64,000 bases of DNA. Source: Leucoraja ocellata. Taxonomy: Eukaryota. Of the stretch, positions 839 through 37,300 are shown piece after piece (within the stretch, counting starts at the first letter, position 1; the number at the start of each line of letters is the position of its first letter). The stretch is from contig JAWMAR010000276.1 in the NCBI GenBank assembly GCA_036785375.1, positions 1,054,001-1,118,000 on the forward strand, written 5' to 3'. Under the pieces are notes generated by a model. That model did no database searches. It saw only the letters and a list, made by a program, of their open reading frames with translations, and had not been told where the DNA came from. A program made the position numbers and the translations under genes.

Positions 839-1120
839 AGCAAGTGCCCACCGAGTCCACACCGACCAGCGATCCCCACACATTAACACTATCCTACACA
901 CAGTAGGGAAAATTTTACATTTACACCAGACCAATTAATCTACAAACCTGTACGTCTTTGGAGTACGGGAGGAAACCAAGGATCTCGGAGAAACCCTACG
1001 TAGTCATGTGGAGAATGTACAAACTCCATACAGATAGCACCCGTAGTCAAGATCAAACCCAGGTCTCCGGCTGCAAACGCTGTAAGGCAGCAACTCTACC
1101 GCTGCACCACCGTGGCCGCC
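839..1120 (-). mobile_element. tRNA-derived SINE (approximate)
   Basis: Reverse complement of the ggtggtgcagcggtagagttgctgccttacagc... family; other copies at 2360-2660, 43645-43975 and 63415-63690. Confidence 0.75.
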
Positions 1121-2359
1121 CATTAAGTGTACATAATGGGCGGCCATATTGTCCACAATTAGTGATAATTTTGCTTTTGTTTTGTTTAAAAAATGCTAGC
1201 ATTTTTACAACTTTAAAAGCTAGGTCTGAACCGCATGTAAACTTTCCCCAATCAGCTTCTCTTTCTACAAAGTTAAAGGTTGTTAACTTTGGTACCTTGT
1301 TCCATCACAGATGCATGTAGAATCTCTATAAAATTGAAATTTCCAGGCATTACTAAAGGGGTAAATTAATTTTGAAGACGAAACCTGATTTTCCAATCAT
1401 TTAATCCCAATAAACTGCCAAAAAATAAATAAAGCTGAGATTTTAAAGGCCAAATTCAATTGCTCACATAAACAGATTTAAATTTCTCAGGTGAAGCTGG
1501 GGATTCAGGGCTTTATGCCTGCCATTTTGTGGGCTGATTTTACTGCTACCTAATATCAGGCTGCATCTCTTAAAGTGGAGATATATTTTCATTAGGTACA
1601 CAAAGATGCTGGAGAAACTCAGCGGGTGCATTGATTTTCATTGGCAGGCAGTGTTGGCAAATATACTGTGTTGCCTAATATTCAGTGGCCGTACACTTGA
1701 GGTTAAGATTACCAAATACAACTTATCAGCTTCACCACCACCTGCGGCTTCATCATTGGCTATGAATCAGGTCACACATTTCAAATTTTGAATTAGGATA
1801 TAAATACAACATTGAGGCAGGAAATAACAACTGGTCAAAAATCATATATAAAGAAACCTAGATTTGAGTTGTAAGCAGACAATGGAGCAGCTAACAGCTC
1901 ATTCCCATTTTAGGGCAAACAAAGTGAATGTTATAATGCATGAGTTAGATATATGAAAAGTTGCATTTATTTTATACGTATCCTTTGCAAAGGATAATAA
2001 AGCATCACATTGGAATTAGACTGAACTGACCTGCTTCAGAAAACAAAACTCTGCAAGTCCAGCAACAAGTGTGAAAAGAGAAACCAGTAAATGGAACTCT
2101 TCTGAGGACGATGGTGTTTTGATTGACTGAGTTCTTCCAGCATTTTCATCCACATCAATGCGATAAAACTCTCTACGATGTAATTTGAAAGTGCAATCGG
2201 TGAGCCACTCAACTATTCTTTTGAGCTATTTCATACCTGATTATACTTCAATTCTCCTTTTTCCTTTGGAAAGCACTATGGGATTTCTATTACAAAATTA
2301 ATTCTGCCAATCTTATGCAAAGAATTATCACAACAACTGTTCACCGGTTCATTAGGTGA

Positions 2360-2660
2360 AGGCGGCACAGTGGTGCAGCGAAAGAATCGCCAGAGATCCT
2401 GACCTCGGGTACTGTCTTTACAGAGTTTGTATGTTCTCTCTGTGACTGTTTGTACGTTCTCTCTTTGATTGAAATTTTGATGAAAGTTTCGCAGGTTTCC
2501 TCCCACATTCTAAAGATGTGCAGGTTTGTAGCTTAATTGCTTTCTGTAAATTGTCCATAGTGTGAAGGATTAAACTAGTGTACGAGTGGTTGCTGGCCGG
2601 CGTGGATTCGGTGGGTCAAAGGGCCTGTTTCCACACTGTATCTGTAAACTAAATTAAAAC
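2360..2660 (+). mobile_element. tRNA-derived SINE (approximate)
   Basis: Same family as 839-1120, with an (AAACT)n tail. Confidence 0.7.
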
Positions 2661-3570
2661 TGAACACTAGGAACAAGGGGGAAAAATCTCCAGTGCAAAG
2701 TTCATGCAAATTGCTACTCTAAATTTCCGGTGAGATCTTTCTTCAAAATTCTTCCATTGTACCTCACAGCTTTTCTATGGAAGCATGATTGAATCAACAG
2801 TTACTGGCGTACAAGTTATGTTGGTCTTATGTAAACTTTCAAAGTCTGATTGTCTTTTCTGGGGGACAATTTGCAACCTTGTCGTCGTCGTCTGTTAGGG
2901 CCTCCCATGCTGAACAGGTCGAAGGGTAGAGGCGAGACAAAGAGTGATCCACTGGTCCTCTTAAGCACATGGCTAACACCCCTGTCTCGTAAAACAAATG
3001 TTACGGAAACAGCAATTGACAGGAGTGGAGGACCTTTGTTGCTGCCCTACATGCCAGGAGGTATAATAGGCAGTAAGTAAGTAATTTGGCATGGCACCAG
3101 TTTAAATCGTATGAGCTTGTCTGAACAAAAAATATTCTGCATGTAAAGATCAAGCCACAAACTTGTATATGTGAAATTCTGAATCCCCCGCCTTAATTGG
3201 TATGTTTAAATATTTCATTTTCTATTATGCTGCATTGAAAAATGCAAATATTTTTCATGCAACTTTGCTTAAAAAGTTACCAGTTTAGCCACACTAAATG
3301 TTTCTTTAGCATACTCAATCTATATTTGTGGTAAAGATCAGAGTCGTGACGTACAAAAATTATACCAATCACATGTGCCCAATGCCTTTGCATAAAAGCC
3401 AAGAGGAATTAGTGGTCTAACAAAACTTGCAACAATTATACTCGTCTGCCTTCACACATTGTATCTTTGTATGTAAAGAAACGGATCATCTGATGATTTA
3501 CAAGAAATAATAGGGTGAGCTGCGTTGTGGTTGCTGAGAGTTTCATGGTCCAGCTGGTGACTACGGTGAC

Positions 3571-6500
3571 ATGGAGACATCATTTTACATTATCCTACAG
3601 CTGTTAATACCTTTTGCAGGTATGAGACCCAACTGTAATACTTTATACAGAATTTGATTTCACCAAGCAAATGGAGATTGCTGATGTTGGAATCTAGAAT
3701 TGAAAAAAGAGTGCTGAAAGAACTTGGTGATCAAGGCAAAAAGTGTAAGTCATTATTTCATGATGAAATTCTAAATCAGTCCTGATCAGGGGCTCGAACC
3801 AAAACATTGACCTACACTTTTTCATAGTCATACGGCGTGGAAACAGGCCCTTTGGCCCAATTTGCTCACGCTGACTGCATTTGTCCCAACTACCTGCATT
3901 TGGCCCATATATTCTTCTAAACCTATCCTATTCATGTACCTGTCCAAATGTTATTTTTTAATATTGTGAAAGTACCATTTTTTTTGCCTTCACAAATGCT
4001 GTTTGATCCACTGATTTCTTCCAACGTTGTGTTCTTTAATTTTATCAAATTTGGATAGGCATTAAGTTCATACTATATGTTGTCAATTGCATGGAATGTA
4101 ACAGTCAAAGTGAATGATAGCAAAATTGATGTGATTCTACTTTTGTTAGTGCATTTTGTGTTGAATTTACTTGATGAAATTGAAATGGGTTAGCAACACT
4201 GAATGTTTGCTATTACTTTATTTTCAAACCATCTTGAACATTCACAATTGTGTTTTTTATTTTCCTAAGTTGAAATGACTAATATATATTGACACTTTTA
4301 AATTTCATGATATAGCATGCCACAGCCATTTGAGCTTTTAAACTTAAAGAGCATTAATTTAAACTTTCCAAAACTTTCATTGTAATTCAGAAATGTGGTA
4401 TTCCATGTAAGCCTATGATCCCCTGGTGTTGAGACCCTTTGTGCATTTATCCTTTGTATACCTCATTGTTCTTATGTTGCTTGTTTTGTTCATTTGTTTC
4501 AATCTGGTGATATTTTGTTAAAATACCATAATAGTCTCAGTTCATAAAATGGCTACAGCTGGCATTATTTTCCATTCCATGCCTTATTGTGTTGTTACAT
4601 GGTACCTAATGGATTTGTTTTGGGAAGTATTGTTCTTGCAGCAGAGATAGAATATATCTTGAAAACAATTCTGTTCTATGGTATTTGAATGTTTAAAATT
4701 CCTCTGTTTACATTTTTAAAACATGCAGGAGCAGTGTTAAAATTGTACTCCAAATACAGCTGCAAATGTACTAATATGAAGTGTTAAGCTATGAAGTTTC
4801 TCTACAAACAAAGAAATGTAATGTGTTGACCACTCATATGGCAATCGCAGAGGAGGTTCAAACAAGCACAGTTACATTTATTACAATTATTACCGCGGGG
4901 AAGATTAACTTTGACATACGGCATTTTAATTACATTTTCTGAATCTCCTTTTCTCAGCTGTACACAAGACAAATAATGATTTACAACAACCTGATACCCT
5001 TACCATCGCAAAAGGACATTCGATCTCATTACATTGTTCCTATTCCATGCATTATCTATCAAGATTTACAGTAAAGTGGTTTTTATGCAATGATAGCCCA
5101 TATTCTTTAACGATAATCGCAAACCTATCTACCGATAAACCTTGGGTTTCTCATTCTCGATATTGCGTAAGGCATAATTCTACATTGAAGGCATTCATCT
5201 TAACAATTATCGATGTTCAAGTCAGTGACAATGGAATCTACTGCTGTGAGGTGATTCGGTTGGCACCACCGCCAACTTTAACAGGCAAAGGAAATGGCAC
5301 CCTACTGAATGTAACTGGTAATTATTTTTTTAATTCTTTAAAAAGTGTTTTGGCAGTTTTACTTGGAACATTAATGCAAACTTTTGCAGCAATTAACTTT
5401 GTACAGTTGTGTCAGTTATATGAGAGATGTGTCAGATATGATCATCACACGGCAGTGAGTTAGCTCTAAATCAGCATGCTGGCTGAAGTTCTTAATTTGT
5501 CCTTAGTGGTCCGGAATAGGAAGGTTTAGGACACATATATTTTTGGCAGGTTGGACCTACTTTTGAGATAACAAATAAAAACAGGAAACACTGGATATAA
5601 TGGGACAGGCAGAGCCTGCAGAAAAGGAAACAGAATAAATATTTCATATCTTTCTCCTTTTGTCAGAACAAGGAAATATTTGAAATTACTTTTTGTGCCT
5701 GTTTGTGTGAAAATTGAAGGTAGCATGATTTATCAATTTCAATGATAACTATCTATACTTCCAAATGATATTTATCTTATTAAGGACTATTTTATTCATA
5801 GCTTTCACTGTTGTGAGAAATAAAGGAAGTTTAACTTAATTTTCATCAAAAGGCACAAATATAGGACTAACATCAGTCATGCTTGTTCTTACAGCAGTAG
5901 AGTGGTCTGAATTAGACATGAGGCCAAATGTGTTTCAAATCGACAGTGTAGTTGTGCTTGATTTAGATTGACAGTGAGATAATTTCAAGTTAATTTATCA
6001 GCAAAGAGAGGAAGCACAGTAGAATCGGGCATAGTCAAGGCTTATAGCCAAATCAGACCAGAATCCTAATTTATGATGCTGTTATACTAGAGACAGGAAT
6101 TTAATTGACATAACGAACACATCATGGTTACAAAATAGACACAAAAAGCTGGAGTAACTCAGCAGGACAGGCAGCATCTTTGGCGCGAAGGAATGGGTGA
6201 TGTTTCGGGACAAGACCCTACTTCTTGACCCGAAATGTCACACATTCCTTCTCTACAGAGAAACTGCCTGTCCTGCTGAGTTACTCCAGTTTTTTATGTT
6301 TATCTTCGGTTTAAACCAGCATCTGTAGTTCTTTAACAGAATGGTAACAAAATATTTTGCTTTAAATTTACAGCACAGCGGAGACCTTTTGTCCTTTGTA
6401 TAAAAGCTATGTTTTATTCGTGCTGTACATTTTGCACATACCATCATGGTTGACAAGTATCGGATTTTGTTGCATTTTGCTACCGAATGTATAAATTGTG

Positions 6501-9500
6501 TCAATATTTAATTGGTACTTTATTGTCTCAATTATGGTATGTGCTTAATGGTCAATTCTCTACTGCTTATGGATCAGCTTTGAAGAAACAGAAGAGAAAA
6601 TAGAATCTTTATGAATGTCAATTTTCCTGATTAAGATCTACAAAAATCCAACTGGCTCATTTATGACAAGAAAAAATGAAAGTAGATTTGCATCTATTGA
6701 AGGCTGCAGCAAACACATCTACCTTGAAGATAAACAAATAAGTAACTTTAATTCAGTTCTTCTCTGATTAACCATTAGAATGGATTGAAAATGATAACTA
6801 GACTGTTGTATTAAATGACACTCTTATGTGCAGTGAGGAAGCATTTAGGATTTGGTTGTTGGTTGTAGTATTGTGTGAGAACATAGTGGTTAACTTCAAT
6901 TGACATCGATGGAAGAGGAAATTTGAAAAGGCTGATACAACCAAAGCAAGAGGCCAAGAATGATCGTGGAACAGCATAGTCAACATGATCAAGACCCACA
7001 GTCAGAGAAGGCCAATTAAAATAAGTGAATGAGTAAAACAAAAAATAAGCACATTACTATACACATATGTCTGAAGAAGGGTCTCGACCTGAAACGTCAT
7101 CCATTCTTTCTCTTCAGAGATGCTGCCTGTCCCGCTGAGTTACTCCAACATTTTGTGTCTACATAGTATTCGAGTTAGGTTGGAAATGCGTGAAAGTGGC
7201 TAGTTATATGTGTGTCCTTACAGGATTGGAACAATAGTGGGAATAGGATGGTTGGGATGGGGATGAATGCTTTAGAATGAGGAAATAAGAGCAAAACATT
7301 TTGTATAATTATAGAGCTTCATATATATTTGTAGATTAAGCAAACAGAAAATATTCAGGTGTTCAGTTCTGCATAGAAAAATCATAACTGATTTCAAGAA
7401 ATGTATATTTATAATTAGTACTGTTTATGTAATTAAATATGAACCTCAGTACCTTTGTAATTTGGATACCTTTGAAGAATGATATGCCACTTCAGAATTA
7501 TACCATTGCTAATCTAACGAAAGCATGATCATGTTTCACACCTTTTGGCCTCTCTCCACTGGCTGCCTATTCAGTATAGGATTCGTTTTAAAATTATTTT
7601 ATTTACTTTTAAATCCCTAAGTGGTCTTGCCCCGTCCTACCTATCTGAGCTTCTTCACCCTTATTCGCCCTCCCGCTCTCTCAGGTCAGATGATCAGCTG
7701 CTCCTGATTGAGCCAAAGACTAAGCGGAAGCTCAGAGGGGACCGTGCCTTTGCTGTGTCGGCTCCGAGATTGTGGAATGAATTGCCTCTGCACGTTAAAC
7801 AGACCCCTTCTCTAGCTGTTTTTAAGACACTCCTGAAGACATATCTGTTCTCCATGGCCTTTGTAGACCAGTGAGGTGTTAAATTGTTTATTAACTTTAT
7901 TTGCTTGGTTTTGCTGCGTTGTTCGTACTCGTGTTTTATGTTTTTTAATTTATTGTTTGGATTTTTGTATGTAATTTATGCGCCTCGTGTTAGTTGTATG
8001 TTCTGTTGTTCTGCCTGTTTTATGATGTCTTGCTTGTTTTCTTTTTTCTGTACAGCACTTTGGTCAGCTTTGGTTGTTTTTAAGGTGCTTAACAAATAAA
8101 GTTGTTATTATTATTATTATTATTAATCTATCTTTTTTTTATTACCAGCTTGTCCTTCTTTTCGGCTCATGGAATCTTACGACAAGATTTCTTCTTCACC
8201 ATCAATTATCATTACATGCTTAGCATATGGGTTTTATCCAAATATTATTACATTTTGGATACAACCAACCTGTCTCACCCACAGGCGCATCAGTACAAGC
8301 AACTCAACCAATCCCAATGGAACCTATAACTACAATGCAACGTTTAGCATCTCCACAGAAAATTGCTCCAACTCCACTGAATTCATGTGTGTAGTTCAAC
8401 ATCCAGCATCACAGACCGAGCTAAATGTTACTATCATCATAGATGTTCATACAGTTGCTCAAGGTAGGATGGTATCATAAAATCAATTCAGCAGGAAGGC
8501 CAACAAAGCCCCTGCTGGAATGTGTTGTAAAATAAATGCTTTACTAGATATAAAGAAAGTGTGATAGAAATAAAGAAGGCCAAATTTACTTTTTTTAAAT
8601 CAAATCAAACTCACTTTATAATATTACCTTATTAACAGGCACACCTTATTTTTCTGGCTGGCTAATTGTTGTTTCCCACTTGAATTACTTCCTTGACATA
8701 CAATCTCTGCTCTTCCTGATTTATGACACCCTCAAAGGAGGCACAGTTTTATTTCCTGATATCAACAAAATGATATCAAGAAATAATGTTGTGCCTCCTT
8801 TGTGGAAATTAACAAAAATGTATAATTATGTGATTGTAATCAGAATAAGAGTTCACACGCTAGATTCCTGGTGAAGAACCATGCATACTGGGGAAAGAAA
8901 TGTTTAAAGCAAAGTCGCCAGACTTCTGGAGTTTAACATTCAATTCTGGAAATTAACAGGTTAACATTCCGGCTGCTGCAAGCTGAAGAATTAAGAGAAA
9001 GCTTATCAGTGCTCTCTATCCGATGTAGAATTCTTAACCCAAAAACCTTCATTACGATAAACTACATGTAAACACTGTGACTGCGAAATACTGCCATGAG
9101 TGTCCTTTGTTTAGGTAGGATCTGATGCCCTGTGTGAGCTGCTTTGCCTGTGGCTGCTTAGGGCTCCATGCCAACAAATTTATACATGTTGGGTTCCTTT
9201 CAGGCCAGAGCTGGAAATAGTCATGTTATTTCCTGATTTGCCGTCCACTTTTATTGAAGGGAAGTCACCGTTGCCTTCCAGCAGATCACATATTTGTTCT
9301 TGCTAGAGACAAGCAAGTGGATTGAGCACACACATTTGGAATGGTTGTTGTCTTCTCAATGCTGCTGAATGTCATTGACGCACCCATGCTGCATTGCAGG
9401 ATTCACATATCAACACAGGGATGTACCACAACTGGTATAAAATTTATTCCCTTAATAGCCAGTGCATGCACAAGCATACCCAGTATTCTGGCAGCAGTAT

Positions 9501-12500
9501 AAACACCTATATTCTTTGGTGATGCACTGTGTTTCAGTGCTTGAGCATCAGCAATAAACATAAAATTGGCAAGTGGAAACAAGGACATTAAGCTGAACAT
9601 ATGATACCGCAACACATGGATAGTATGCATATTATGAATATCATGCCGGCATATACAGTCTGATGGAACAGACAGTCATAGCATCACATGGCCACCAATG
9701 GATTCGGGGATGACAAGGCCCTTCATTTCTGCCATATAGGTAGCTCCTCACTTACCAGAACCTTCTCAAATGGCTCAATCATACCATATTAGCAGAATTT
9801 TTGTGATAAACTAGATTAAGTGGGACCCGTTGGCTCCCTGTCACACGGATGCAACCGGTTCCCCAACACAATAGTCCACTCACCCGTTCCCCCAATGCAA
9901 CCTGTCCCCCCAACTCAATATTGCACCACTCATGCATAGCCCTCACCTGCGCAGGCACGGCTCATTTCCCCTCATCCCCCAGCACTCCCTCCCCCTCTTC
10001 ACCCTCCCTCTTCTTTCCCTTCTCCTCCCCAATCCCTCCCTCACCTCTCCCTCCATCTACTTTCCCCTACCCTCAGTCACTCCCTCTCTCCACAACTCCT
10101 CTCCCCTCCCTACCCCCCTCCTATCCCTCTATCCCCCACTCCTCACCTCCCCTATTCCCCCCACTATCCTTCCTGACCTCCCCCACTGTCCTCGTCTGCC
10201 TCTATTCCCCACTCCCTGCCTCTCCCACCCCCCCTCATCTCCCTCTATTCCCCCACTCTCCTTACCTCCCCCACTTTCCCCCTCTCCCTCACTACCCTTT
10301 CCTCTCCCTCAATCCCCCCACTCTCCCTCCTCACCTCCCCAGGATCTTTCCCCTCTCCTCCTCCCCTCCCCAATCCCTCCCTCTCCTTTCCCTTACCCTC
10401 AGTCACTCCCTCGCTCCATCCATAAAGAGCAGCATCTACAGTTCTCTCCTCCACAGGTCATCCATTGTTAGATGTGGTTTAGATCCAGTTGACATGACGA
10501 TTGGACCAGTTTGCATCGTGTGTGTGAGTTACTCAAACTCCGTGCAAACTGCTCAGCCACTCTGCAACCCGACTCTAGTAGAAGCAATGTGACACACCAC
10601 TCTGAGAGCTCAGGAAATTTCCTTTCTACTTTCAGCTTAATTCACTTGGCAACATTCTAATTCAAGTCTGAAGTTTAAACTCCATTAATGGCATATAAAC
10701 ATTATCCTGGAAAACATTCCATCCATACATGATCTGGTGTACATCATGCTGTTGTTTTCCAGACATTGTTGAGTATGAATCAGCCACGATATTTACCTTT
10801 GTTACAATTCAAGACATTTATTTTAGTTTTTGTTTAGTTTATTATCACATTTACAGAAAAGCATTTGTTGCGTGCTATTCAGTCAGCAGAAAGACAATAC
10901 ATTATTACATTCGAGCCATTTACAGTGTATAGATAGATATATGATAAGAGAATAATGTTTAGTGCAAGGTAAAGCCACCAATACCCGTTCAAGGATAGTC
11001 TGAGAGTCATCGAAGAGGTGTATATCTATATATATATATAGATATACACTTATTCTAATTACGTTAAACTTTTTTATTAGAAATTTTTTATTAGAAATTT
11101 TTATTAGAAATTACATATATATATATAGATATAATTTCTAATTAAAAAGTAAAACATGTCATTAGAATAAGGATCCAAAAGCTGGGTTTGATTCTAAACT
11201 AAATTGAGGAATTACAAAACTTTGTCACTTTACATGACCTAAAAATTGTGCAAACATTTTCCACACACATTTCCATTTCCTCTATTCATAAAAAACATGT
11301 TTTGTGGTTTTTGGTGTTGTGCTATTTCTAAAGGTCAGCAAATTGATCTTTTAGTTCAGTTTATGTATGACCAGGTCTAATCCAGTCAAATAACTTTGTG
11401 CATTATTATTTTTAAAGAAAATGAAAAGCATAAACCCCGATCTGGAAGGTGAATATACTGATGAAATAATTCAAATATGTTAAAGCATTTAAAAATAAAT
11501 TAACTAAGAATTAGTGAAATCAAATAACTTTATGTAATCAAAATTAAAGATCTCACTATAAAATAATTTCATAAACAGCAAGAAAGAAAAGGACTTAAAT
11601 GAACATAACAATTGAAAATAGTTATAGAAAATAGAAAACCTGAGCACAACATTTGAATGGAGAGGTGGATTGATTTTTAAATGTGGTGGAAGTTATAAAT
11701 AAAAAGCCTTCAAATGTTTGGTCCCAAGTTCAGATCAGATTAGTTTATTATCATCTCCAAGAGGGTGGTCCTTGTTTCTTGTTCATATGAAGCTCACAGT
11801 GTATCAGTAAACATACACTAATGATAAATACAACAATATGACGACGAGAGCAAAACAGCAGAATTGTACACGATTGTCATGCGAAATTCATGTAGTGTAA
11901 AAGAATATTAAAATACAAAAATAGAATAATCAATGAGATAGAGCATCTCTGGAAATGGGGTGTAAAAGAGATGATTGTTTCAGGAGTCAGTTAGCAATGG
12001 GGAAAGTGGCTCTTAATTCTGGACATCTGGGCTTTCATGCTCCTGTATCCTCTCACAGAAGGTAGAAGGGGGAAAAAGGAATGGCCGGGACAGCAGGTAC
12101 ACTTGACAATACTTCCAGCCTACCTGATGCAATGCACCATGAGGGTGGACTGTATGGAAGGAAGAGACAAGCCTGTGATGGACTGGAGATACAGGTAAAC
12201 AAAATAACCATTGCAGGTCAGGGTGAGTGAGTCTGAAGAAGGGTCCCGATCTGAAACAGAGCCTACCCATCTTCTCCAAAGATGCTGCCTGACCTGCTGA
12301 GTTACAGTACTCCAGCATTTTGTGTCCTGTGATGGACTGTTTTGTGTTCAGTACTCTCTGCAGGTTCAGATGGTCAAGAACAGAGCAGATCCCATACCAT
12401 TCTGAGATGCACCCTTCACAATGCATCCGGTAGTGCATCTATAGAAGTTTAAGAAAATCCTCATGAAAAAGACATGTTGAATCTTCTCAGGCACATAAGA

Positions 12501-15500
12501 GAGTAAATGTATTGATGAGCTTTCCCGATCACTGCATTAGTGTCAAAGGACCAGGTTAGGTTGTTGCTGATACAGATACAAAGAAACATTAAGCTGTCGA
12601 CCATCTTCACAGCCGCTCAGTTAATGAGGACAGGGTTGGGTTCATCCCCTCACCAGCCCTATTTCCTTAGGTCAACGATCAACTTTGGTAACAGTCCTGG
12701 GACTAGATAATGGAATCGCCAAATGAGGAAGAGTTAAGAACCTCTGTGAAAGTTTTGTGTAGGTGGTGCTCATCTCCGCTGCACAACCTCAACCATAAAT
12801 AGACTTACCCTGAAACTGTAACTTGTCATCAGCGATAGAGATATTTTGGGAGAGCTGTTTTCAGAAAGATGATTTCCGCAATCTTTCAGAGAACCATTCA
12901 GATCCACGTCTTTGTCAGATGGACTTTGCTTTTTACAAAACTGTATGCCCTTGCTTTGCTGAATGAGGTAATCTGCTAACCCATTCTTGTTAATGTTGAT
13001 GATATTATAAAGCAGAAAAGATCAATCATTAACATGCCATCCTGATCATTCCCAGTTGGACCTTGAAAGCTCAGACATCCGGACTTAATAACACCAACTT
13101 TCCCATTGCTATCCAACTCCTGAACTAATCATCTCATTTCACACCCCTTTCCCCAGAGGTGCTGCCATGTAATCTTATTCTTAACTCTATCTCACTCGTT
13201 TTTCCACTTTTACACTTTTTTTGTACTATTTTCAGATTGTACTATAATCTTTACACCATTCTCATGTTTTGCATTTGCCACTGCATTTATTGTTCATGTA
13301 TTTATTGTTTACTCTATGAGCTTCATGCAAACTAAGAATTTCAGTGTCCTACTGGAGTCTATAACAATAATCTAATCTGTATTTTCATTATTTTGAACAA
13401 CAAATGAAGCCTCACTCTTTGAGAACTTTTCCCAGGATCTTCATTGGCTTTTCAGGCCCAATGGGTTTTTACAAGTTGAAATCAAACTCCAGTTTTTATC
13501 AAATTCAAATGGGGTGAAATGGCATTATTAACTGGCCAAGCCAAAATATTCTGATTGATAACTTAAATTATATTTGTACAGAACTTTGTACATTTATACA
13601 AAAGGAAAACGGCTTTGAGACGACGCAAACTATAAATTATTATTAATACTGCAATTATACTTTGGTAATGATTAATTGGAAGAGAAAAGAAAGTGTAAAG
13701 TGCAGGGAAATTAATAGTTGTAAAAAGTTTCTATAAATAAAATGATTAAATGTATTGAACTTGAAATCGTTCTGGAGAGTTGTTTAAATCGACCATGCAT
13801 AACGTGATTTAACAATTCCAATTTTCCACAGATCATAAATGGAGTACCTGGATTTCCATTTTACTTTCCATAAGTGGAGGAACAGCTTGCCTTTTCCCTC
13901 TTGTGCTCTTCCTTATAAAATGTGCATGCAGTAAGTGACTTCACAGCCAACTTTCCCAAAAGCAAACAATCCAGTTTTAGGTGTAATCCTGATTCTGTAC
14001 AGTGATTCTCCCTTCATTAATTCCGTGTTTGCATCTATTGTCCCACTTTTTAAAATTGACATAATAATATGAAGTAAATTATTAGATATGTCTACTTTTG
14101 AAGCTACATAATATATTCCTAACATGACATAAGATATCTAGTATTATGTTGATTCACATGCTTGATCAATGGTGTTTTATCATTAATGTTTTATTATTAT
14201 TGTTTAGTGTTTTTTGAGTCGTTCGTAACTGTCAATGTATGTCATGTTGTTACTTGAGGGCAGAGCACGAAGGTAAATTCCTTGTGTGAATACTTGACCA
14301 GTAAACCTACTTACTTACTTACTTACTTACTTATAATATAGTTCACTTTACTACAGACTTTAAAACTAATTATTCCACTTCATTATTATTTCTCATAGAA
14401 AGGAAAGGAATGCAAGAGCAAACAAGAATTCAAAGTAATCGAACTTTGAACCTTGAATGGAATAACATGGTAAATATTTGATTTTTTTTTAAAGATAATG
14501 TATATTTAGTCTTCTTTGGTTACTTATTCAACGCAAATGTTGGACTGTCTGTCCCTTCTCAGAATTCTCTGGGATTTCCACATAAACAGACCAAGAGAAG
14601 CAGGCTTGTGAGTTTGAATGTATGTATGACAATGTTTAATAGCCTGATGTGGACCTTGGATACTCCTGCAAAGTTTTAATTGCAATTACAAAATCAAGCA
14701 AACAGCTCATTAGAAATAGAAACATAGAAACATAGAAAATCGGTGCAGGAGGAGGCCATTCAGCCCTTCGAGCCAGCACCGCCATTCATTGTGATCATGG
14801 CTGATTGTCCCCAATCAATAACCCGTGCCTGCTACTAGTAGGCTAGTCCTGATACTATGTATCACATGGTGAGGAAACAGTAATTAAATGAGTGATCCTA
14901 TGGATTTTTTGGTAAATAGTGTAACAATAATAAATGAAACAAAACTAGGTGATTCATCAATGGTAATGCCATTAAATGTCAAGGGTAGGTGGTTACTGTC
15001 ACACTTGTTGGATATGGTCAGTGCAAATGGTTAATTTCGCTTGAAGTGGCAAACGATTGTTGGGCATAGCACATTGCCTGGAGGAACCCCTGATGAGATA
15101 TCTGATGACTGGTATAAGTGATCAGCAGCAAAGTACCATTTTGCTTTCTTTGAAGTATGATTGCATATTGGAGTGCTTTCTCCTTGATGCCCATTGACTT
15201 TTGACTGGCCAAGGATCTAGAATATCGTACCTGGCCATCTGCAAAGTCAATCTTCTCACCTCTGAAAGGTGATGAGGACAGGAGCTGTGAAAATCTGGCA
15301 AAACCTAAACTGGACATCAGTGAACCATTTATTAGAAAGTCAGTGCAGCTTCACTGGCGCTTCTCAATGCTTTGTTGATGACTGAGACTAAGATGACTGA
15401 GAACATGCTGAGTGGTTGGCACATTAAACCATTAGAAGTTAATGCACTATGTTTTGCTATTTTGTAGAATGAAACCAATGAGGAAGAGATCTGCTATGCC

Positions 15501-15611
15501 AAACTGCAATGGGCAATGACACGGAGAGCTAGAAAGGAGGAGGAGGAGGAGGAGACTGTGTACAGCCCAGTTCTTCAGTGGAAGACTAATGGAGAGGGCA
15601 GCTGCAAATAA
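3571..15611 (+). CDS. Inhibitory IgSF receptor, VJ-C1-TM-ITIM-ITSM (CD28/PD-1/NKp30-related), 6 coding exons, 345 aa
   Basis: Exons 3571-3619 (leader METSFYIILQLLIPFA), 4958-5317 (V), 8149-8463 (C1), 13832-13930 (TM), 14399-14469 and 15468-15611 (tail, TAA). All introns are GT-AG with compatible phases 1,1,1,1,0; total 1038 nt. AATAAA at 15629 and 15643. Confidence 0.85.
4958..5317 (+). CDS. Exon: IgV domain with in-exon J-like segment
   Basis: QQP..G.SISLHC...VKWF...DVQVSDNGIYCCEVIRLAPPPTLTGKGNGTLLNV. Has the B-strand Cys, C-strand Trp, DxGxYxC and GxGT. Acceptor ttctcag, donor G|GTAATT. Confidence 0.92.
7517..8123 (+). mobile_element. 5'-truncated L2-clade LINE 3' end with (TTA)n tail and 7-bp TSD
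   Basis: LHWLP..RI.FKI...GDRAFAVSAPRLWNELP; AATAAA followed by (TTA)n; TAATCTA duplicated at 7510-7516 and 8124-8130. Confidence 0.88.
8149..8463 (+). CDS. Exon: Ig C1-set domain
   Basis: ITCLAYGFYPNIITFW...NPNGTY...FMCVVQH are C1-set signatures. Phase 1-1 exon. Confidence 0.9.
9960..10420. repeat. Polypyrimidine (C/T) low-complexity tract
   Basis: About 450 bp that are almost entirely C/T. Confidence 0.9.
11740..12700 (-). mobile_element. Rex1/Babar-like LINE 3' fragment with a nested Penelope-type repeat (approximate)
   Basis: Minus ORF GCISEWYGICS.LD..NLQRV.NT.QSITG resembles the Rex1 RT C-terminus. Confidence 0.6.
13832..13930 (+). CDS. Exon: transmembrane helix of the VJ-C1 receptor
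   Basis: DHKWSTWISILLSISGGTACLFPLVLFLIKCAC, with no charged residue in the hydrophobic core. Acceptor ttttccacag, donor A|GTAAGT. Confidence 0.8.
15468..15611 (+). CDS. Terminal exon with ITIM (ICYAKL) and ITSM (TVYSPV)
   Basis: NETNEEEICYAKLQWAMTRRARKEEEEEETVYSPVLQWKTNGEGSCK*, followed by two AATAAA. Confidence 0.85.
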   Translation, partial: NETNEEEICYAKLQWAMTRRARKEEEEEETVYSPVLQWKTNGEGSCK

Positions 15612-16584
15612 TGAAACCATTCAATACAAATAAACGTGCTTGAATAAACCTTGGATCAAACCTTTGCATCCAAATCTTCCTATGTGATCATTCTCAATGT
15701 ATTTCTCTTAATTCTGTTTACTTTGTTGATTAGATGCAATTCATGTTTGTAGGTTTTCCAACATTCCTCTTTGAGCTGTGCTTGGGTGAATATTTTGCCT
15801 GTTTTGTATGAGCTGCCTTTGAGCTCCTTTCACCTTTATGGAAGTTCTAGTTTTGTCATCAGTGGTGTCCCAGTGTCATGTATTATTATGTGCAAGCATA
15901 CAATCATGTGCATGTAACCTAAAACAATGATTATTTTAGCCACTGTGTAAATATTTTTTTTAAGAATCTTTAAAACCAAGTATCTAAGTGCTTCAGCTAG
16001 AATTAAATATAAATCCTAACAAGGACCAACTTGCTGCGATTATTTCCCTGCCCACTAAAGCACACTCTTGGAGTAAATCACAGATGTGAAACTCTTCAGG
16101 TCAGCTGATATCAGGTGAACACAGCAAAGGCCAACACAGCCAGAAAGACCTTTGTGTTTGTAACGGGCAACTCCACCCACAAAACCACTTTGATAGGCAA
16201 TTGGACATGCACAGCTTAAGCCCCCAGGAGTCTGCAGCTCTTGTGTGGCCAAACTCAACAACCGATGGATTCAGGGGGAGCTCGCTGAGCCAGTCCGTCA
16301 CAGCCAAACTCAAGACCTGGCAGATCTCCACTTTATGGGTTACATATAAGAACAAAATTGAACTGCATCACCATCTAAAAATTTTACTTCTACGTTGAGC
16401 CATGTTTTTAAAGATTGCCAAGGCTTACTGACATTCAGTGATCACTCTATTCACATATTGAGCATAATCGTCACACCAGCCTACTCTGCCCCAAACCCCA
16501 CTCCAAATTCCACTTTAAAATTAGTACTGCAGTCAAAAGCGGTTACATTTGTCAGCATCTGATCTGCAGTAAATTTCTGAATTT

Positions 16585-17460
16585 TACTTCGGAGTCACGT
16601 GAGTGACTACGTGAAGAAGGCCGTCCTGGCGCACGCGCGTCATCTCGTCAGACGCATTGCGCTGCGTAGGAGGACAGACCTCCAAGCGGTGAGTGCAAGA
16701 AAACCTGAACGTTAGTATTTTACTTTCATTTCAGGCTGCTTTCCTCCGTGGAGACCGCGTGCAGAGACACAGGCAAGTCTTATGTATGGAGAAGGGTGGG
16801 AGGAAGAATGGTAAGTGCACCGCAGTAAGCACTCAATAAGACGAAGTGTCTGAGAGTAGCGGGCGCCCAACTAAAAAGTCGATTGTAAAGAAATAACTTT
16901 TACACGGGGGAAAAAGTCCCGTTGTAACTCCCACAGGAAACTGGTGAAGGAACAAGTCGTTTGTACCCGCATACACGATATTGGCGTACGACCCCAGGAT
17001 GTGGAGGACATGGTTATTCCCACAAGGGGCAAGGTACAAAAAGTGACACCAGCAAATCCTTAGGTAGGTGGTTCTGGTTCTGAGACAAACATATCAAATG
17101 TGTCCTATTCACAAATTGGGGGAAAATTACAATTCTTCCTAATAGAAGGGCAACAAATAACATCTGATGCCTATATACTGTGCAGTATAATGGGGTTTAG
17201 AATTGAATTCTACCAAAAAGTGAAAATTCCCCTACTCAACATATTCCAAAACGAATACATGTTCTCTAAAGAAGAGATTAGAATTATTCAAGTAGAACTT
17301 GACATATTGAGTAAAAAAGGGGTAATTGAGAAAACAACTTATCAAAAACCACCAGTGCATATCTAGTATTTTCTCTATACCTAAAAAAGGATGGTGGCAG
17401 TAGAATCATTCCGACTTTACAAGTCTCAACATTTCAAAATGGAGACATTTACTTATGCTT
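16585..17460 (+). mobile_element. DIRS-like retroelement relic (approximate)
   Basis: IGGKLQFF...ITSDAYIL..IMGFRIEF...ELDILSKKGVIE, then a frameshifted SIFSIPKKDGG.R, as in DIRS RT N-termini. 5' hairpin cttc..gtcacgtgagtgac..gaag. Confidence 0.65.
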
Positions 17461-28303: not shown

Positions 28304-28358
28304 ATGGATTGTACGTTGAGAAAGATGCTGTTGTCATTGATGCTGTTCCCTAACTTGG
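28304..28358 (+). CDS. Exon: signal peptide
   Basis: gcaATGG Kozak context; MDCTLRKMLLSLMLFPNL; donor G|GTGAGT. An acceptor at 28300 implies an upstream non-coding exon. Confidence 0.75.
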
Positions 28359-31300
28359 GTGAGTGTTCATCTGAATGGGGAGATTGTGTACATTTGTTAT
28401 CCACTAACTGGCTGCTTCTCACAAGTTATGAATCTGATCTTAGAGGCAATTAAGTTTTCTGTTTTATTCATTGCCTAATTTAAGATTGAAGAGTAAACCC
28501 TTTGCTCAACAATATAACAAAGATTCTCACACATTTTTTCTTTCATTGCTTATTTGCCTATTGAGGTGACATTATTCTCCTGCTTTTACCTTCATTTCAA
28601 TCCTTTTTCCCTTCATTTCATTTTGTAACTAAAGTAATATCTTGTAAAGTGTGATAGAGTCAGTAGATGTGGAAACACGTCAGTGGATTGGATTTGTGGC
28701 ATGCTGGAAGCTTTAGCATACCGCAGCCAGAGAGCAGTGCTGAACTACTATCTACCTCTTTGGTGACTCTCAGACTTTCCTTGTTCGGACTTTGCTGGCT
28801 TTACCTTGCACTAAACATTATTCCCTTGTCCAGCACTGTAATACACTGTAAATAAACTGTACACTGCCTGGCTCAATTGTTATCATGTATTGTCTTTCTA
28901 TTGACTGGATAGCACGTAACAAAAGTATTTCACTGTGCCTCGGTGCATGTGTCAATAAACTAAACAACTCTGTTGGAGCACAGGAAGTTTGGAGGTAGAT
29001 GACTCCAACTTTATCTGCAAGTTAACGCATGCATTTTCATTTCCTCTATTTTCCCAGCTGAAGGATCTTTCTCTCGATCCTTTGGGATGTTGAATAGAGA
29101 CATCCTGCTGCCCTGCGCCTTCCATGCTTCATCCAACTTCAATCTGAAAAATCTCATCATCACATGGCAGCGGACAGGCAGTCTCACCGTGGTTTACAGT
29201 TTCTATTCTGGAACAATCCATCGGGAGCATCAGGACAAAGCATTCCTGGACCGCACTCAACTATTTCTCTCCGAATTCACCAAAGGGAATGCGAGCCTGA
29301 AATTGGAAAGAATGTTGTTATCTGATGTGGGAAACTATACTTGTTTTGTAACTGTAGATGATGGAATGCCACACATTGAGAACGTGGTGGAACTAAAATT
29401 AAATGGTGAGTGCATCTTGTGACAGATAGATCGATGTTTTGTTGTGTACATTTCATAGAATTGTAAAGCACAGAAAGGGAATCTTTTGGCCGTCTCATAC
29501 CAATGCTATTCTCTGCAAATCCCATTTGTCTGCATTAGACCAGTGTCTTTCCCATCCAAGTACCTTTCCAAATGTCTTTCAAACATTGTCATAGTATCAC
29601 TTTCTACTACTTCCTCTGGAAGCTCATCCCAGATATTGTCATCCTGTGTGAAAACATTCTCATCAGATCTCTTTTAAAAGTCTCTCCTCTCACCTTGAAC
29701 CTGGTCTTTGTCTCGACCCGCAATCTTATCTGTCCATTTCCCTCCGTGGATGTCGAGTTTCTCCTGCATTTTTGTATTTTGATCAAGATTCCAGCATCTG
29801 TCACAACTTGCATCCCCATTAAACCTGTGCCTTCTAGTTCTGGCTCCCTGCGGAAAAAGACTCTGACTATATCCCATTGATATCCAATTTAAACTGGTAG
29901 AGGCAGAATCCCCGGTTGTCTGGCATTCCAGTGAGTGAAAAACCAGCCTTTCCATTTTCTCATTATAATTACAGTCCACTATTCTGGGCGACATGTGCTG
30001 AATATCTTGTGAATGCTTTTACAATAACACTTCCTGTAACGTGACAACTGGAACTGCACTCAGTATTCCAAATGCAGTGTAAGCAGTGTTTAGTACAGCT
30101 CCAACATGATGTTCCAACTCTTGCAGTCATTGCCCTGGCTTATGAAAGCAAAGAGACCATCCGATTTGTGTTTTGCTATCTCTGGTGATAGGATTGCAAG
30201 TGCAAGTGAATAAGTGCCTCATCTAGGAAGTCTGTATCCCTGGACAGTGGGAAGGGAAGAGATGAAAAAGCAGGTTTTGCAACTTCTGCGATTGCATGAG
30301 AGAGTTTCCCAATCTTGGGAGCGATTGATAATACAGAAGACCGGACCAGGGCAATACATAGAATGTAAAACAGTGCAGCACAGGAACAGGATATTCGGCC
30401 TGCAAGGTCCACGCCAAACATGATGTCAGGTTAAAATAACTGCCCTCTGCCTGCACTCAAACTTTCTTCAAAATGCTGAAAAGGGAGGAGAGGAAAGTAG
30501 TCTGAAGAAGGGTCTCGACCCGAAACGTCACCCATTCATTCTCTCCAGAGATGCTGCCTGTCCTGCTGAGTTACTCCAGCATTTTGTGTCTACCTTCGAT
30601 TTAAACCAGCATCTGCAGTTCTTTCCTGCACAGAGGAAAATATATGTTTGGTGGTCAAGTCTTGTTGGAGCTGCTGGAATTGGCAAAGATGATCCATTGA
30701 ACGGAGAGACAACTGGGTCCAGGGAACTCTGTTGTGTAGGAAGGAACTGCAGTTGCTGGTTTACACCAATGATCGACACACAAAGCTGGAGCAACTCAGT
30801 GGGTCGGGCAGCATCTCTGGAGAAAAGGAATAGGTGACGTTTCAGATCGAGACTGCAATGTCAGTTTGTCGCTCGCCAATCCCTGAACTGACAACAGAGA
30901 TCCAGAAAGAGAAGGGGAGTGTCAGATGCTGTAAATTGGAAGCAAAAATGGAAGGCATTTGAGTTGTGCCTGAGTGCAGGAAGCAGCACTGATATAATCG
31001 TCGATGTACTAGAAGATGAGTTGAGGGGTGTGCCAGAGTTGCCCCAAAACAGTGATAGCTTCCTATATCCCACAAAAAGACAGGCATAGCTTAGCCCATG
31101 TGAACTGCACTGTTGATCTGGAGACTATGGTCATGGTCCATTTGTGACAGGTTTGTATCGTGTGAGCACTTGTTGCTTATAAAAAATTGTATTCAAAATA
31201 GAAGACTTACACTACTATTACACTTGCAATAAAAAAGGGTCCATCAGATTTTCACAATTCTGTTCCCAAATGCAAATTATAAAATTAATTACATTATAAT

Positions 31301-34300
31301 ATATCTTGATTTGAAAATGTGGTTTAGCTCAATTCTTAATTGAACACTAACCATTTGGTTTTTTTTGTGTTCTGAACATCGTAGATATATCGGAGAATAA
31401 TACATGCGGTGGCACCGATCCAGCTTCAGAAAGGAAAAAGGTTGTACTCATACTTCCATTGCTACTTGTCATTTTAATTGCAGTTGGAATTTTGCATTGG
31501 CAAATGAAAAACAAGGAGAAACCAGATATTGAAGAGAGTGAGTAAAATGTTTAGGATTTTGGCCATTAATCACACAAACTGAATACCTATTCGAGAATGT
31601 GTTCAGAACACTGCATTGGGAATGGATTTCTAGGCACTTTCAGCCATAGTGTATATGACATCCTTTGAGAGGAACATGTTCTAACATGTGGTTTATTCTA
31701 TTTCTTTTTAGTGATTCATTTACTGGAAGACAATATAAAAGGTAAAGAACCAACCTCCGTTGAGATTTTCTTAAGTTATGCAGACTTACCTACGTGGAGC
31801 TGGCCGGCTTCGGGGCGTGGAGAGCGGCGGTTGCACATTGATGTGACCCGGCTCCAGTGGATGGTAACACCAGGAGCTCGCGGATCCCCGGTGGGAGACT
31901 GCTTTGCGGGGCACCGGCAGCGGCGACTTCTCCAGCCCGAATTGCGGGGTTGAGAGTGACCTGGAGGGGGGCCCTACAACGCCCGGCGCGGCCTTAATTT
32001 GCCGCGGACTAGCGCCCGCTGGGGGCTTTGACCTCGACTTCGGGAGGGAAATGGAGTGCAGGGGAGAGACAAGAACTTTGCCTTCCATCATAGTGAGGAG
32101 GAGAGCCACTGTGATGGATGTTTATGTGAATAGTGTTGGTGTGTGTTTTGGTTCTTTTATTGTATTGTATGGCTGCAGAAACTACATTTCGTTTGAACCT
32201 CATGTGAGGTTCAAATGACAAATAAAGGTATTGTATATTGTATATAGTTTCTGCCCACAATAGTAGAAGTGGTCTCCTTGTCCACTACTGGAATCTGCCA
32301 TGGAATTAATCTTCAGAAGGGTGTGAAATAATTGTTTTTAGAATGTGGTCGTTGAATGAATAAAATAATTAAATATGAATTTTGAAAGAAAGAACATACA
32401 AAATATATATAAAATCCAGACCTGTTTGAGCAAAGTATCTTAACAAGAAATTAATTTTATTCTTTTCAGGAAGCCCATCCAGTCTCACAGCTCATTCAGC
32501 AGCTTGACCTTTTAAGCCACATCAGGCTAGAATGGCAGATAACTGAAATTATTGATGCAGATGGAATTTGACGGCAGTCTTGTCACTTCCTCATCACCTT
32601 TACTGAGATTGTTTGAATCTTCAATTCCACAGCTGCTGTGGTGGGATTTAGGCTGATGTCACTTGATCAATGGTCCAAGCCTGTAGATATTAATCACTAT
32701 GCCAGCATACTCCACTGCTTGCCCTACTCCTCTCTGTACAGCCTCATAGTGAACCTTGACACCATTGGTTCAATCAGTGTCCCTCACCCCTTGGTCTGGT
32801 GTAATCATACAGTGACCAACGTAGAGTCCCACCAGTATGTCCTGAATGGTACCGTAGTGTTGGGTGCAAGGATAGTCCCTTGTTTCTCACTCCGTTTTGC
32901 TGCCCTCCAAATCATGGATCCATTCTACAATGGAGTTGCATGCTGGAAGATTATAATCTAGCCATTGAGTATTATTTGGCAGGAGGACCGTCATTCTGCA
33001 TCATCTCCAAGCACCCAGGAATCCAAGGTTCACCTTCAAACTGTATCAGATTTTATTATGTGAAATATTTTCATAATATGGATATTTTGAACTGTGTAAC
33101 AAAGTGCCAACCAAAAGCTGGTGTAGATGATGAATGGAAAATCTGCAAGATTTTAATACCTGTGTCAGCAGGGCATACTGACCAACAGTTGGCAAATGGA
33201 ATAGTATAGGTGGTTACTTGATGTTTGGCATGGACAAGGTGGGCTGAAGGGGCTGTTTCTGTGCTGCATAACTCTGACAACTTAAACCTGAAGCGATGTG
33301 GGAATTCTTAAAGGGGATCAGCAATTTAATGGATATCTGATGCTCACAGTTCTCACATTTTGTTAATCCATGATAATAAAATACTTGCTCGTTCTGAGAA
33401 ATGTGTTTTTTTTTCTTTTCTTCAGATGCCATTCTGAATTATAAAGAGTACATCTTGAAAGATAAAATGCATTTATGTTGTTCATTAACACAACGGCGAT
33501 TCGAAAACTATCCGCTTGCCAGAACCATCAATATTACCAACCCGAAGGAACAAGACCTAGATGGTGATCTTATCAGGAGCGATGACTCAAATATTGCACA
33601 AGAAGTACAAATTTCACAACTGCTGTCATTGCTTCGGGAAGAAAACTTCTCAAAGCGAGTCCTGCTGGTAGGTGATGCAGGAGTAGGGAAGAGTTGGACT
33701 GTTGTCAGCATGGAGCAAGAGTGGGCATCTCAACCAACCCATCCCTTGAGGTGCGTCTTTGTTCTCAGATTCCGTGACTTGAATGAGGTTAAAGGAAAGA
33801 CATCTCTCCGGGATCTGCTGAAGAAGCATTGCACACCTTTGTCATCAGTCCTAACAGAACTCCTCTCGAACCCTCAAGATGTGTTGATCATTTTGGACGG
33901 GCTGGATGAATTCGCCCATCAGTTGCAATGGAATCCATCAGGTTGTGATTTCGACCTGGATAGTGAGGCTGAAGTAGGTGTTCTTGTTTCCAAACTAATA
34001 TTCAAGAACCTCCTTCGAGAAGCCCAGGTGTTGGTTACCTCCCGGTGGAATACCAAGCAGATAGAATTTAACAAGAAGTACTTTGATCAGCTTTTTGTTA
34101 TCTCTGGCTTTACCAATGATCAGCTGAAAAGATATTGTGAGGTGTTTTGTGGAGAGAAGCAAAAGGCGGAAGTAATGTTTCAACGCATTACAGAGAATGC
34201 AACCATCAAATGTCTGGCTTCCAATCCCCTCAACAGCTTCATTCTGTGCAATATTTTGGACAAGTGTACCAGCTCTCAAGCAAATGTACCAGTGACAAAT

Positions 34301-37300
34301 AGCAAAGTGTTTACATTGTTGCTGTACAGTCTGTTTAACTGCAGCACGAGTAAAGAAACAGACGCTGAGAATAAGAGTGAAGAGGAGAAGCAATTGTTTA
34401 AAGACACCATCCTGAAACTGGGAGAACTATCCTTCAACTCTCTGCTATCAGGGAAACTTAAAATAAATGTGACTGATCTGAAGACCTATGGAATAGATCC
34501 AGACATCCTTTCAAAATATCTCTCAAATCTTGTGCTGGACTGTAAATGCCAAGGAGTCTTTGAGTTCCACCATGCAGTGCTGAAGGAACAATTTGCAGCT
34601 TTGTATTGTGCTACTTTACTCAACAATGAAGCTGAAGAGTTGGTCAAGTGTCTGGATCTGTGGTGCTTTGGGAAAATGCCACTAAATCAAATGAGCCAAT
34701 TTTATTTGCAATCTTTTCAACCTGACCACACAGAGAAACTGTACAATTTTCTGAGGTTTCTCACTGGCTTCTTAACCGCAGGAAGAGATGGCAAGTTGTG
34801 GAACTATACAACTCCTCTCCCCCCTTCTACAGCCAGAGCTCTCACAACATGGTTCAAAAACAGCCTTCAGCGAGACATTAAGAAGGCAGAATTGCTGAAT
34901 TTGATGCACTGTCTCTTTGAACTGAATGATGCCACTGTAACGGCAGAAGTATCTCCTTGCATCCGAGATGTGGGTTTTCACAACGTTTCTCTGAGCCCAC
35001 TCGATCTGCGTGCTTTGTGCTACTGTCTCAATCATTCCACCGTGGAGGAGATGGATTTGAGGCACTGTAGCATTGGTGATAAAGGAATAAAGCAGCTCCA
35101 AGAAATACTAGTCAAGTGCAGAACTCTTTTGTGAGTAATGATTTTCAAAAGAATATTAAGCTCCAGTTGCACTAATCTACCTTCTTGCATGCACAATGTT
35201 TGTTGACATGTTTTATACTTTTGTCACATTTTATGCCCTACATGTCCTGATTTATTCTAGCCCAGCTAATATTTGTGCCTGAAAGTTGTAATGAAATATA
35301 TACAAATGGAGATACTACTCTTCAAGACTAGAATGGAAACAATGTGTGCAATTATCTCCCTCAACTACATTGTTCTATGGTAACCCCACCCTCCTCCAAT
35401 GTTGCCCTGTGGAGCCACAGAGCTTCATTGTAATAACCACAAGGGCAGAGATTTAATTCTATGCATTCATTCTAGTTGTTGCTCTTATGAATACACATGC
35501 ATTGATCACTATAAAAATACTTGGGGGCGGTTTGCTTTATCTGCAAATACACCTGTTGGGGGTTTGATCTTTCTGTAAATCTTGGCCCACCCCATTTCCA
35601 ACGCAGCAGTGTCAATGGACAGGTATTCATAAATCTAGAGGAACAGCATCTCCTATCTCACCTGGGTGGTCTACAACCTAATGGTATGAACATCAAATTC
35701 ATGTAACCCCTCTGTCTATTTGTTGTCTCCTGATACACCTAGATTATCTGTATGTCACTGTATGTCATGTTGTTACTTGTGGGTGGAGCACCTAGGCTAA
35801 TTCCTTGTATGTGAATACTTGGCCAATAAACTTACTAACTTACTTACTTGTCTCATATGCCCCTTCTTTTCAAACCCAACCCCTCTTTCAGTTTCTGTAA
35901 TCACCCTACCCCATCCCAAATGATTCCATCTGTGTATCACTTGCACATTACACCCACTTGATTTCCCAATTCCCTCCACTGTTCCCCTTTTGCCCACTAT
36001 CCCACCCTAATGTGGTTCCACTCACCATTATCCTTTCTTATCAGATTCTATAATCTACCCATGTACCCATGTACCCATTATCACCTCCTCAGCTTCAGGT
36101 TCATCTCAGCATTCCTCATCTGGGCCCACCTATTACTTAAGGACACAAAGTGCTGGGGCAACTCAGCGGGTCAGGCATCATCTTTGGAGAACACGGATCA
36201 CTGACGTTTCAGTTCGGGACCCCACTACAGACTGATCATTAGTTTGAAGAAGAATCCTGATATGAAACATAATCTATTACGTTCTCCAGAGATGCTGCCT
36301 GACCTGCTGAGTTACTACAGCATTTTGTGTTCTTTTGTGTAAATCGGCATCTACAGTTCCTTGTTTCCTCTTTTACTGTACCACTCTACTGCTTTTTTTT
36401 AAATTGCTGCTTTTTTCCCTTTTTCCTTCCGCCCACAATATCTAAAAGAATATGTGATTCTGTTCCATTCTGTTTGTAGTTTGTTTGTTTGTTTGTCTTT
36501 TTGCACAAAGTCCGCGAGCATTGCCACTTTTCATTTCACTGCACATCTCGAAAGTGTATGTGACAAATAAACTTGACTTGACTTGACTTGACTTTATGCT
36601 CTAAATCCTCGACCGCAAACATCGACTGTCTGTCTGCCGCCACCGATGCTGCTTAACCCGCTGAGTTCCTCCACTAGTTCGTTTTTGCTCCAGATTCCTG
36701 CGTTTGCTGTCTCTTGTATATCCAAATATCCAAACATTGATTATTATCAACAAGGTTGAATTGATTTTGTGTATTAGAAAGTGCTCAAGCAGAAACAAAG
36801 GATCTCTTAAACTATGTAATTACCTTAAGTCATTTTAAGCCCCATTTGCACTATCGTTCAAAAATCATTGCCCAGACACATGTGTTAGACCAAGGTTAGA
36901 CTCTGCTCTCCCAGCAGTGCCACAATTGTTTATTTTGCAGCTACCTTTGCAGGCAGCAGTTTGTGAGGATTGTGTTCTGTCCCCAGGCACTCGGGTCTCT
37001 AATTGTTTTCAACGTCTTGTGTTTCCAGGGTAAGCTCCAACAAACTGACTGTAAAGTCAGCAAAGAGTTTGAATGCCGTCCTTGAAGACCCAAAGTGCAG
37101 GATTGAGACATTATCGTGAGATTTTTCATCACATAAATCCTCTTGTAAAATTCTCCAAGTTTCTATAGAGCTTCCAATCGCTGACATTTGCCATTTGGTT
37201 CCGTTTTCAGGTGTGGTACAAACTCTTTTGGTTCGGCGGGGGCTCAGATTCTGTGGAAAGCTCTGGCACGAAACAGAAGTCTCAAAATCCTTCGCCTGTA

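Follow-up and report, generated by a model that had tools for sequence, protein, structure and literature searches.

The question raised by this locus was whether a gene of the skate Leucoraja ocellata combines the VJ-C1 layout of antigen-receptor chains with a CD28-like loop and a PD-1-like tail, and whether such a gene has a particular bearing on how antigen receptors arose. Both had been proposed in a first-pass annotation of the window, the whole 64,000-nucleotide stretch of DNA that was analysed (contig JAWMAR010000276.1, positions 1,054,001 to 1,118,000). Coordinates below are window positions unless a contig is named.

The skate gene is spliced and does not rearrange

The gene was found to be intact, with six exons, GT-AG borders and compatible phases, giving a protein of 345 amino acids with the layout signal-VJ-C1-TM-tail. 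Its coding features were as follows:

3571..3619 (+): exon 1, signal peptide; the Mobula orthologue P0009 has a matching leader
3684..3744 (+): alternative 5′ coding segment that runs to a second donor and lacks a signal peptide; the same peptide opens P0001 and P0005
4958..5317 (+): exon 2, V encoded in one exon, with a PPP loop and a GxG G strand and without RSS
8149..8463 (+): exon 3, atypical C1-set domain (without C-strand Trp, with an extra Cys pair)
13832..13930 (+): exon 4, uncharged TM and juxtamembrane cysteines; contig X1 record 2 joins exons 3 and 4
14399..14469 (+): exon 5, proximal tail, found in P0001, P0005 and P0007
15468..15611 (+): exon 6, ITIM (Y308), ITIM/ITSM (Y330) and stop; X1 record 7 begins at its acceptor

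AATAAA signals were present 3′ of exon 6. Exon 2 matched the Pfam V-set at 7e-15 and exon 3 the C1-set at 2.3e-7, above the cut-off. P0001, which comes from a Logan contig of at most 1354 bases, contained the V, the C1 and the TM in a single frame that ran on into the first part of exon 5. One contig of run X1, which comes from a related species and whose status as RNA was guessed, spanned the junction of exons 3 and 4, and others stopped at the exon 2 donor or the exon 6 acceptor. The second donor at 3744 was used by P0001 and by the Leucoraja model, with loss of the signal peptide. Identity with Leucoraja and Amblyraja proteins was 94-97% per domain. On those exons that are free of repeats, three raw RNA runs from unspecified tissue had a depth below 1, too low to be informative. 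When bases 1-20000 were searched in a relaxed RSS scan, none was found at the V, the sole match being unrelated and located in intron 3; in the skate's own TCR V genes the heptamer lay 9-21 bases past the second Cys. A two-domain V-C Ig fold was predicted with a pLDDT of about 90, and the protein carried six N-glycan sequons.

These findings show that the skate gene is real and encodes a germline-encoded, spliced, non-rearranging V-C1-TM receptor, and they bear out the earlier proposal that it does not rearrange and support co-transcription of its exons.

The V domain is likely of the CD28/CD28H type

The loop RLAPPPT and the G strand GKGNGTLLNV both lay inside exon 2, as had been annotated. 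PPP was present in 22 of 23 family rows, so that the CD28-like loop is conserved, and GxG in 13 of 19 family V domains. The description of the G strand as a J motif stood for the GxG strand and failed for the Phe or Trp that precedes it, which was found in 0/19 domains (Lys in the skate). WYxQ was likewise found in 0/19, the catshark retaining Gln alone. The F-G region had the pattern YxC-x6-PPP-x5-GxG, which fits the CD28X signature YxCx6PPPx4/5GxG given in PMC11599192.

All 19 family V domains scored best against CD28-like groups and not against TCR, Ig or SIRP; the best-scoring group was a single-V gene on contig C531 for eight, a sister V-C1 family for seven, a CD28H-like pair for two and CD28X for two. 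The skate CD28/CTLA4 co-orthologues scored low against the family (mean 58, under TCR at 66 and SIRP at 64). When V exons of the skate genome were ranked with the family V profile, the CD28-like ones reached 45-68 bits, compared to 44.5 for the best TCR V and at most 33 for germline-joined IgL. In a V tree of 42 rows, from which 40 of 82 rows had been omitted for speed and long branches, TCR, Ig and SIRP were split at 98/97 from the family together with the CD28-like and NCR3-like domains, and family V monophyly received 68/78. The V references came from the skate genome and from search matches, CD28/CTLA4 and CD28X being assigned by supplement match, TCR by RSS and IgL by FGxG. The SIRP and NCR3-like V references were labelled by motifs typical of them, and true PD-1, NKp30, NITR, CD28HL3 and PRARP sequences were not part of the V and C1 trees. 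CTLA-4 was among the top PDB matches of the V. These comparisons suggest that the V domain is likely of the CD28/CD28H type, although an AU test did not reject a grouping with TCR/Ig or SIRP (p=0.199).

The C1 domain and its relatives

The annotation of exon 3 as a true C1 domain was upheld by the Pfam match and needed qualification in two respects, since the C-strand Trp is absent and there is an extra cysteine pair, C178/C209, predicted to form a second disulfide. Both features were found in 11/11 family rows. The boundary of the family C1 was sharp (members at least 63 bits, all others at most 48), and the family C1 formed a 99/95 clade. In the C1 tree it was located outside the IgH/TCR clade (95/85), on the SIRP/B7-H6-like side (83/78).

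An alternative is a myeloid inhibitory receptor of SIRP-like kind that has been shortened to V-C1 and would sense a self ligand, CD47-like or other. Automatic RefSeq names often point to SIRP, the full-length profile matched SIRP-alpha best in PDB, followed by antibodies and UrIg2, and hhalign aligned it to an unnamed SIRP-type protein at 98% with 21% identity, the SIRP labels of unnamed reference proteins being a motif-based reading. However, the skate protein has one C1 where SIRP has two, its V fell outside the SIRP clade with 0/19 V domains scoring best against SIRP, and the SIRP-type V domains compared had no PPP loop. Architecture and V tree speak against a SIRP orthologue, and the shortened SIRP was considered improbable.

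That the gene bears directly on the antigen-receptor ancestor was considered very improbable. The V-J-C1 layout and the fold do match TCR and Fab chains, TCR delta V was by a hair the top single PDB match of the V, and the AU test left a grouping with TCR/Ig (or SIRP) unrejected at p=0.199. Foldseek with the predicted fold, however, returned TCR and Fab chains only, at 15-21% identity, and does not discriminate. Against this reading, the V fell on the CD28/NKp30-like side, F/W118 was absent and neither FGxG nor WYxQ was present, the C1 lay outside the Ig/TCR clade, a stalk cysteine was found in 0/17 family members, the tailed forms had no TM charge, and Ig/TCR or MHC markers were not linked to the gene within the 460 kb examined. 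In addition, UrIg and UrIg2 are reported in PMC12227049 to be nearer to antigen receptors than NCR3-type V domains. The special relevance to antigen-receptor origin claimed in the first-pass annotation was therefore not retained, and a VJ-C1 layout taken by itself does not indicate kinship with that ancestor.

Tail, membrane and a proposed inhibitory mechanism

The uncharged TM of the earlier annotation was confirmed, with no charged residue in the skate segment. In the tail, Tyr308 (ICYAKL) and Tyr330 (TVYSPV) are 22 residues apart, and two such motifs arose in 40 of 100000 tail shuffles. Both were kept in 12/12 full-tailed cartilaginous fish, with a spacing of 19-22 residues, as well as in gar and axolotl, and are 19-23 residues apart across the family, so that the inhibitory-type tail is conserved. 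The ITIM-plus-ITSM description fits the skate, where both motifs are present; a Thr two residues ahead of the distal Tyr was found in only 3/12 cartilaginous fish, the others having a plain ITIM. The likeness to the PD-1 tail holds loosely: the skate tail departs from the PD-1 consensus motifs (I/V)(D/E)YG(E/V)L and (T/V)EYATI as given in PMC12151841. Three frogs and the axolotl had a distal TEYxx[IVL]. In both turtles and the newt examined, an Arg was found in the TM and the paired motifs were missing. Because of the tandem tyrosine motifs and the uncharged TM, versus the TM Arg of the turtle and newt members, the layout, as read from sequence, fits an inhibitory receptor that has activating relatives and not a CD3-coupled chain.

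We favor the reading, at a probability of roughly 60%, that the skate gene is an inhibitory co-receptor of the CD28/CTLA-4/PD-1 type in an ancient jawed-vertebrate V-C1-TM family whose V is of the CD28/CD28H type. From CD28-family biology, the PPP loop would be the part that contacts a B7-family ligand carried by another cell. By analogy with CD28-family and ITIM biology, the receptor would be expressed on lymphocytes, and its tail tyrosines would be phosphorylated by Src kinases and then recruit SHP-1/SHP-2. With less assurance, the C1, with the extra disulfide and the six sequons, may act as a rigid, heavily glycosylated spacer and not as a chain-pairing module. The turtle and newt members, which have a TM arginine and lack paired motifs, would be activating counterparts.

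An old and apparently unnamed family

The family was searched for among 1.84 billion representatives, with follow-up searches. Besides batoids and five shark orders, it is represented in Callorhinchus, spotted gar, coelacanth, axolotl, newt, frogs and turtles. Of 422 matches, 150 were listed, 20 of them named by look-up; those listed included no recognisable member from a teleost, a bird or a mammal, which leaves absence unproven. Orthologue database names were automatic (SIRP-like, Ig light chain-like, uncharacterised). In the literature searched, no description of the family was found, and six accession numbers, five from the family and one from the sister family, were unnamed; none occurs in the nine supplements of PMC11599192. 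The V-C1 receptor family is thus real, conserved and apparently unnamed.

Variant ectodomains were also noted. Annotated isoforms without the C1 exon, which correspond to the classical single-V CD28-like form, were seen for P0003 (stingray) and P0108 (axolotl), and the axolotl member P0018 has a doubled V-C1-V-C1 ectodomain.

Genomic setting and described relatives

A second copy, 97-99% identical, was found 333.5 kb downstream, its exon 6 not being an exact match. Because of this identity, and because SMO- and AHCYL2-type genes were duplicated along with it, the copy is probably the other haplotype and not a paralogue, and there is likely one V-C1 gene per haplotype. A tetraspanin (weak matches), a Frizzled-family gene of several exons and an AdoHcyase gene were located 3′ of the V-C1 gene, which is the TSPAN33-SMO-AHCYL2 order of human 7q32. 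What looks by eye like the opening coding exon of a TSPAN33-like tetraspanin lies at 59494-59787 (+), with later exons on contig C276 matching PF00335 weakly. An ORF at 47316-47741 (+) resembled a legumain exon by eye, unsupported by Pfam and PDB; PRRT4-, legumain- and SMO-tail-like ORFs were left unnamed by both. Upstream, two acyl-CoA thioesterase/BAAT exons (L112 and L114) were found at G000:C276:1015859-1036463 (-).

Two non-rearranging VJ-C1 families are said to have been described in 2019, PRARP by Fu et al. and Xenopus VJC1 by Ohta et al., and it is possible, if rather unlikely, that the skate gene is the cartilaginous-fish member of one of them. The question would then be one of naming and would not conflict with an inhibitory mechanism. 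PRARP genes encode VJ(-C1) receptors that carry an ITIM/ITSM, and they occur in bony fish, amphibians and reptiles, a range similar to that of the V-C1 family. PRARP is reportedly a gene pair that is present in birds, whereas the skate has one gene per haplotype and no bird member was among the family-search matches listed. In PMC11599192, PRARP is listed among joined-VJ genes with GxG. PMC10751288 treats it as an MHC-encoded VJ gene, whereas the skate gene sits in the tetraspanin-SMO-AHCYL2-type block, which is none of the CD28-family marker sets in the available text of PMC11599192.

We give hardly any credence to the V-C1 gene being the missing cartilaginous-fish orthologue of CD28HL3, retaining a C1 exon that bony fish have lost. 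The CD28HL3 proteins of bichir and sterlet have CEVxRxxP..GNGT and an xCYAxL-type ITIM in common with the skate protein (by eye, supplement 3), and the authors of PMC11599192 demanded a single-V structure and found no CD28HL3 in Chondrichthyes. Of the three syntenic markers (prkab1b, pla2g1b, tmem233), two were searched; the PLA2 and AMPK-beta matches lay on other contigs and none on C276. Gar has its own V-C1 member (XP_015207742) besides its CD28HL3 (XP_015221322), and the single-V, TM, ITIM-like gene on contig C531 is a better candidate. CD28HL3 orthology was rejected on the synteny of the two markers searched and the gar gene pair. The C531 gene (G000:C531:807000-823534; L003, L068-L070), which has a PP loop and GNG and adjoins germline-joined Ig light-chain genes, is a candidate, from its sequence features, for the CD28HL3 not found in Chondrichthyes.

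A neighbouring B7-like gene and a second V-C1 family

The V-C1 gene is followed by a second Ig gene:

28304..35131 (+): B7-like chimera with signal peptide, IgV (29058-29405), TM (31385-31537), micro-exon and NACHT exon (33426-35131)

Its V lies 13 kb downstream of the V-C1 gene and matched B7-H3 and B7-H4 best in PDB. The IgV-TM-NACHT reading frame was open over 764 codons, and an LRR-like exon was located beyond it, near 37185. One 1210-base contig of X24 ran across the V, TM and NACHT exons, X1 joined TM to NACHT, and X22 joined V to TM. The product is predicted to be a membrane-anchored NLR. In the literature searched, parts of papers included, no IgV-TM-NACHT chimera of cartilaginous fish was found, the papers on Ig or membrane NLRs dealing with echinoderms and sea anemones; the accessible part of the whale shark genome paper (PMC8455134) held no such chimera. 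The neighbour would be a candidate ligand of the V-C1 receptor, although linkage is no proof of binding, and is a less firm element of the proposed mechanism.

On contig C175 (G000:C175:1.07-1.24 Mb; L072-L075, L086-L093), a second PPP-loop V-C1 family was found interleaved with V-C-V B7-like genes, the layout of which resembles that of HHLA2. It has an EIPPP loop, a canonical C1 and a single tail tyrosine, and its relatives occur in chimaera, sharks, lungfish and turtles.

A bolder reading, which we regard as doubtful, is that the V-C1 family represents a tenth CD28-family branch, so far undescribed and extending from sharks to turtles, with a disulfide-modified C1 and with tails that inhibit or activate; its skate member would then bind the neighbouring B7-like IgV-TM-NACHT-LRR product. 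If true, a checkpoint receptor and a membrane NLR would signal in opposite directions. Apart from this, V-C1 receptors too probably carry CD28-type V domains; at least two old families are of this kind, and in the skate each lies beside B7-like genes. Single-V surveys would miss such families, and databases mislabel them as antibody chains or SIRP. The V-C1 gene offers a testable, putative single-locus inhibitory receptor with a candidate ligand in cartilaginous fish.

Comparison with known receptor systems

As described, PRARP and VJC1 resemble the skate gene in being non-rearranging VJ-C1-TM receptors with a tyrosine motif. NITRs have a V and an I-set domain and form multigene clusters, whereas the second domain of the skate gene is C1-set and its locus is single. 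SIRP-alpha, like the V-C1 family, has a VJ-type V, C1, ITIMs and activating relatives with a charged TM; it differs in its V-C1-C1 layout, its separate V clade and the absence of the PPP loop. Ig light chain and TCR genes have either RSS-flanked V and J or a germline-joined V with FGxG, and their products have an inter-chain Cys, a charged TM and a short tail, whereas none of these is found in the skate gene or receptor. According to PMC12227049, the elasmobranch UrIg and UrIg2 have, as the skate gene does, a single-exon VJ followed by C1, but UrIg is secreted, has three C1 domains, is linked to the MHC or an AgR complex and has no ITIM.

PD-1 has two tail tyrosines about 20-25 residues apart, as in the skate receptor, and its distal motif is approached by the TEYxx[IVL] of the amphibian members. 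In contrast, PD-1 has no PPP, GxG or C1, and is represented in sharks and skates by orthologues of its own, with a synteny of its own (PMC11599192, PMC12151841). The CD28 family has a PPP-type CDR3 motif, often with GxG, and so does the skate V-C1 protein, although the aromatic residues of MYPPPY are missing from its loop. As defined in PMC11599192, that family has a single V, in an IgV-TM-tail layout, whereas in the skate receptor a C1 exon is present and spliced. CD28HL3, with its PPP-loop V, GxG without the J Phe, and ITIM plus ITIM/ITSM tail, matches the skate protein and differs in C1 and synteny. The combination that had been called unusual was therefore partly known, PPP, GxG and ITIM/ITSM being already joined in the single-V CD28HL3 and CD28X (PMC11599192, Quiniou et al. 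2024); the new element of the skate receptor is the C1 domain.
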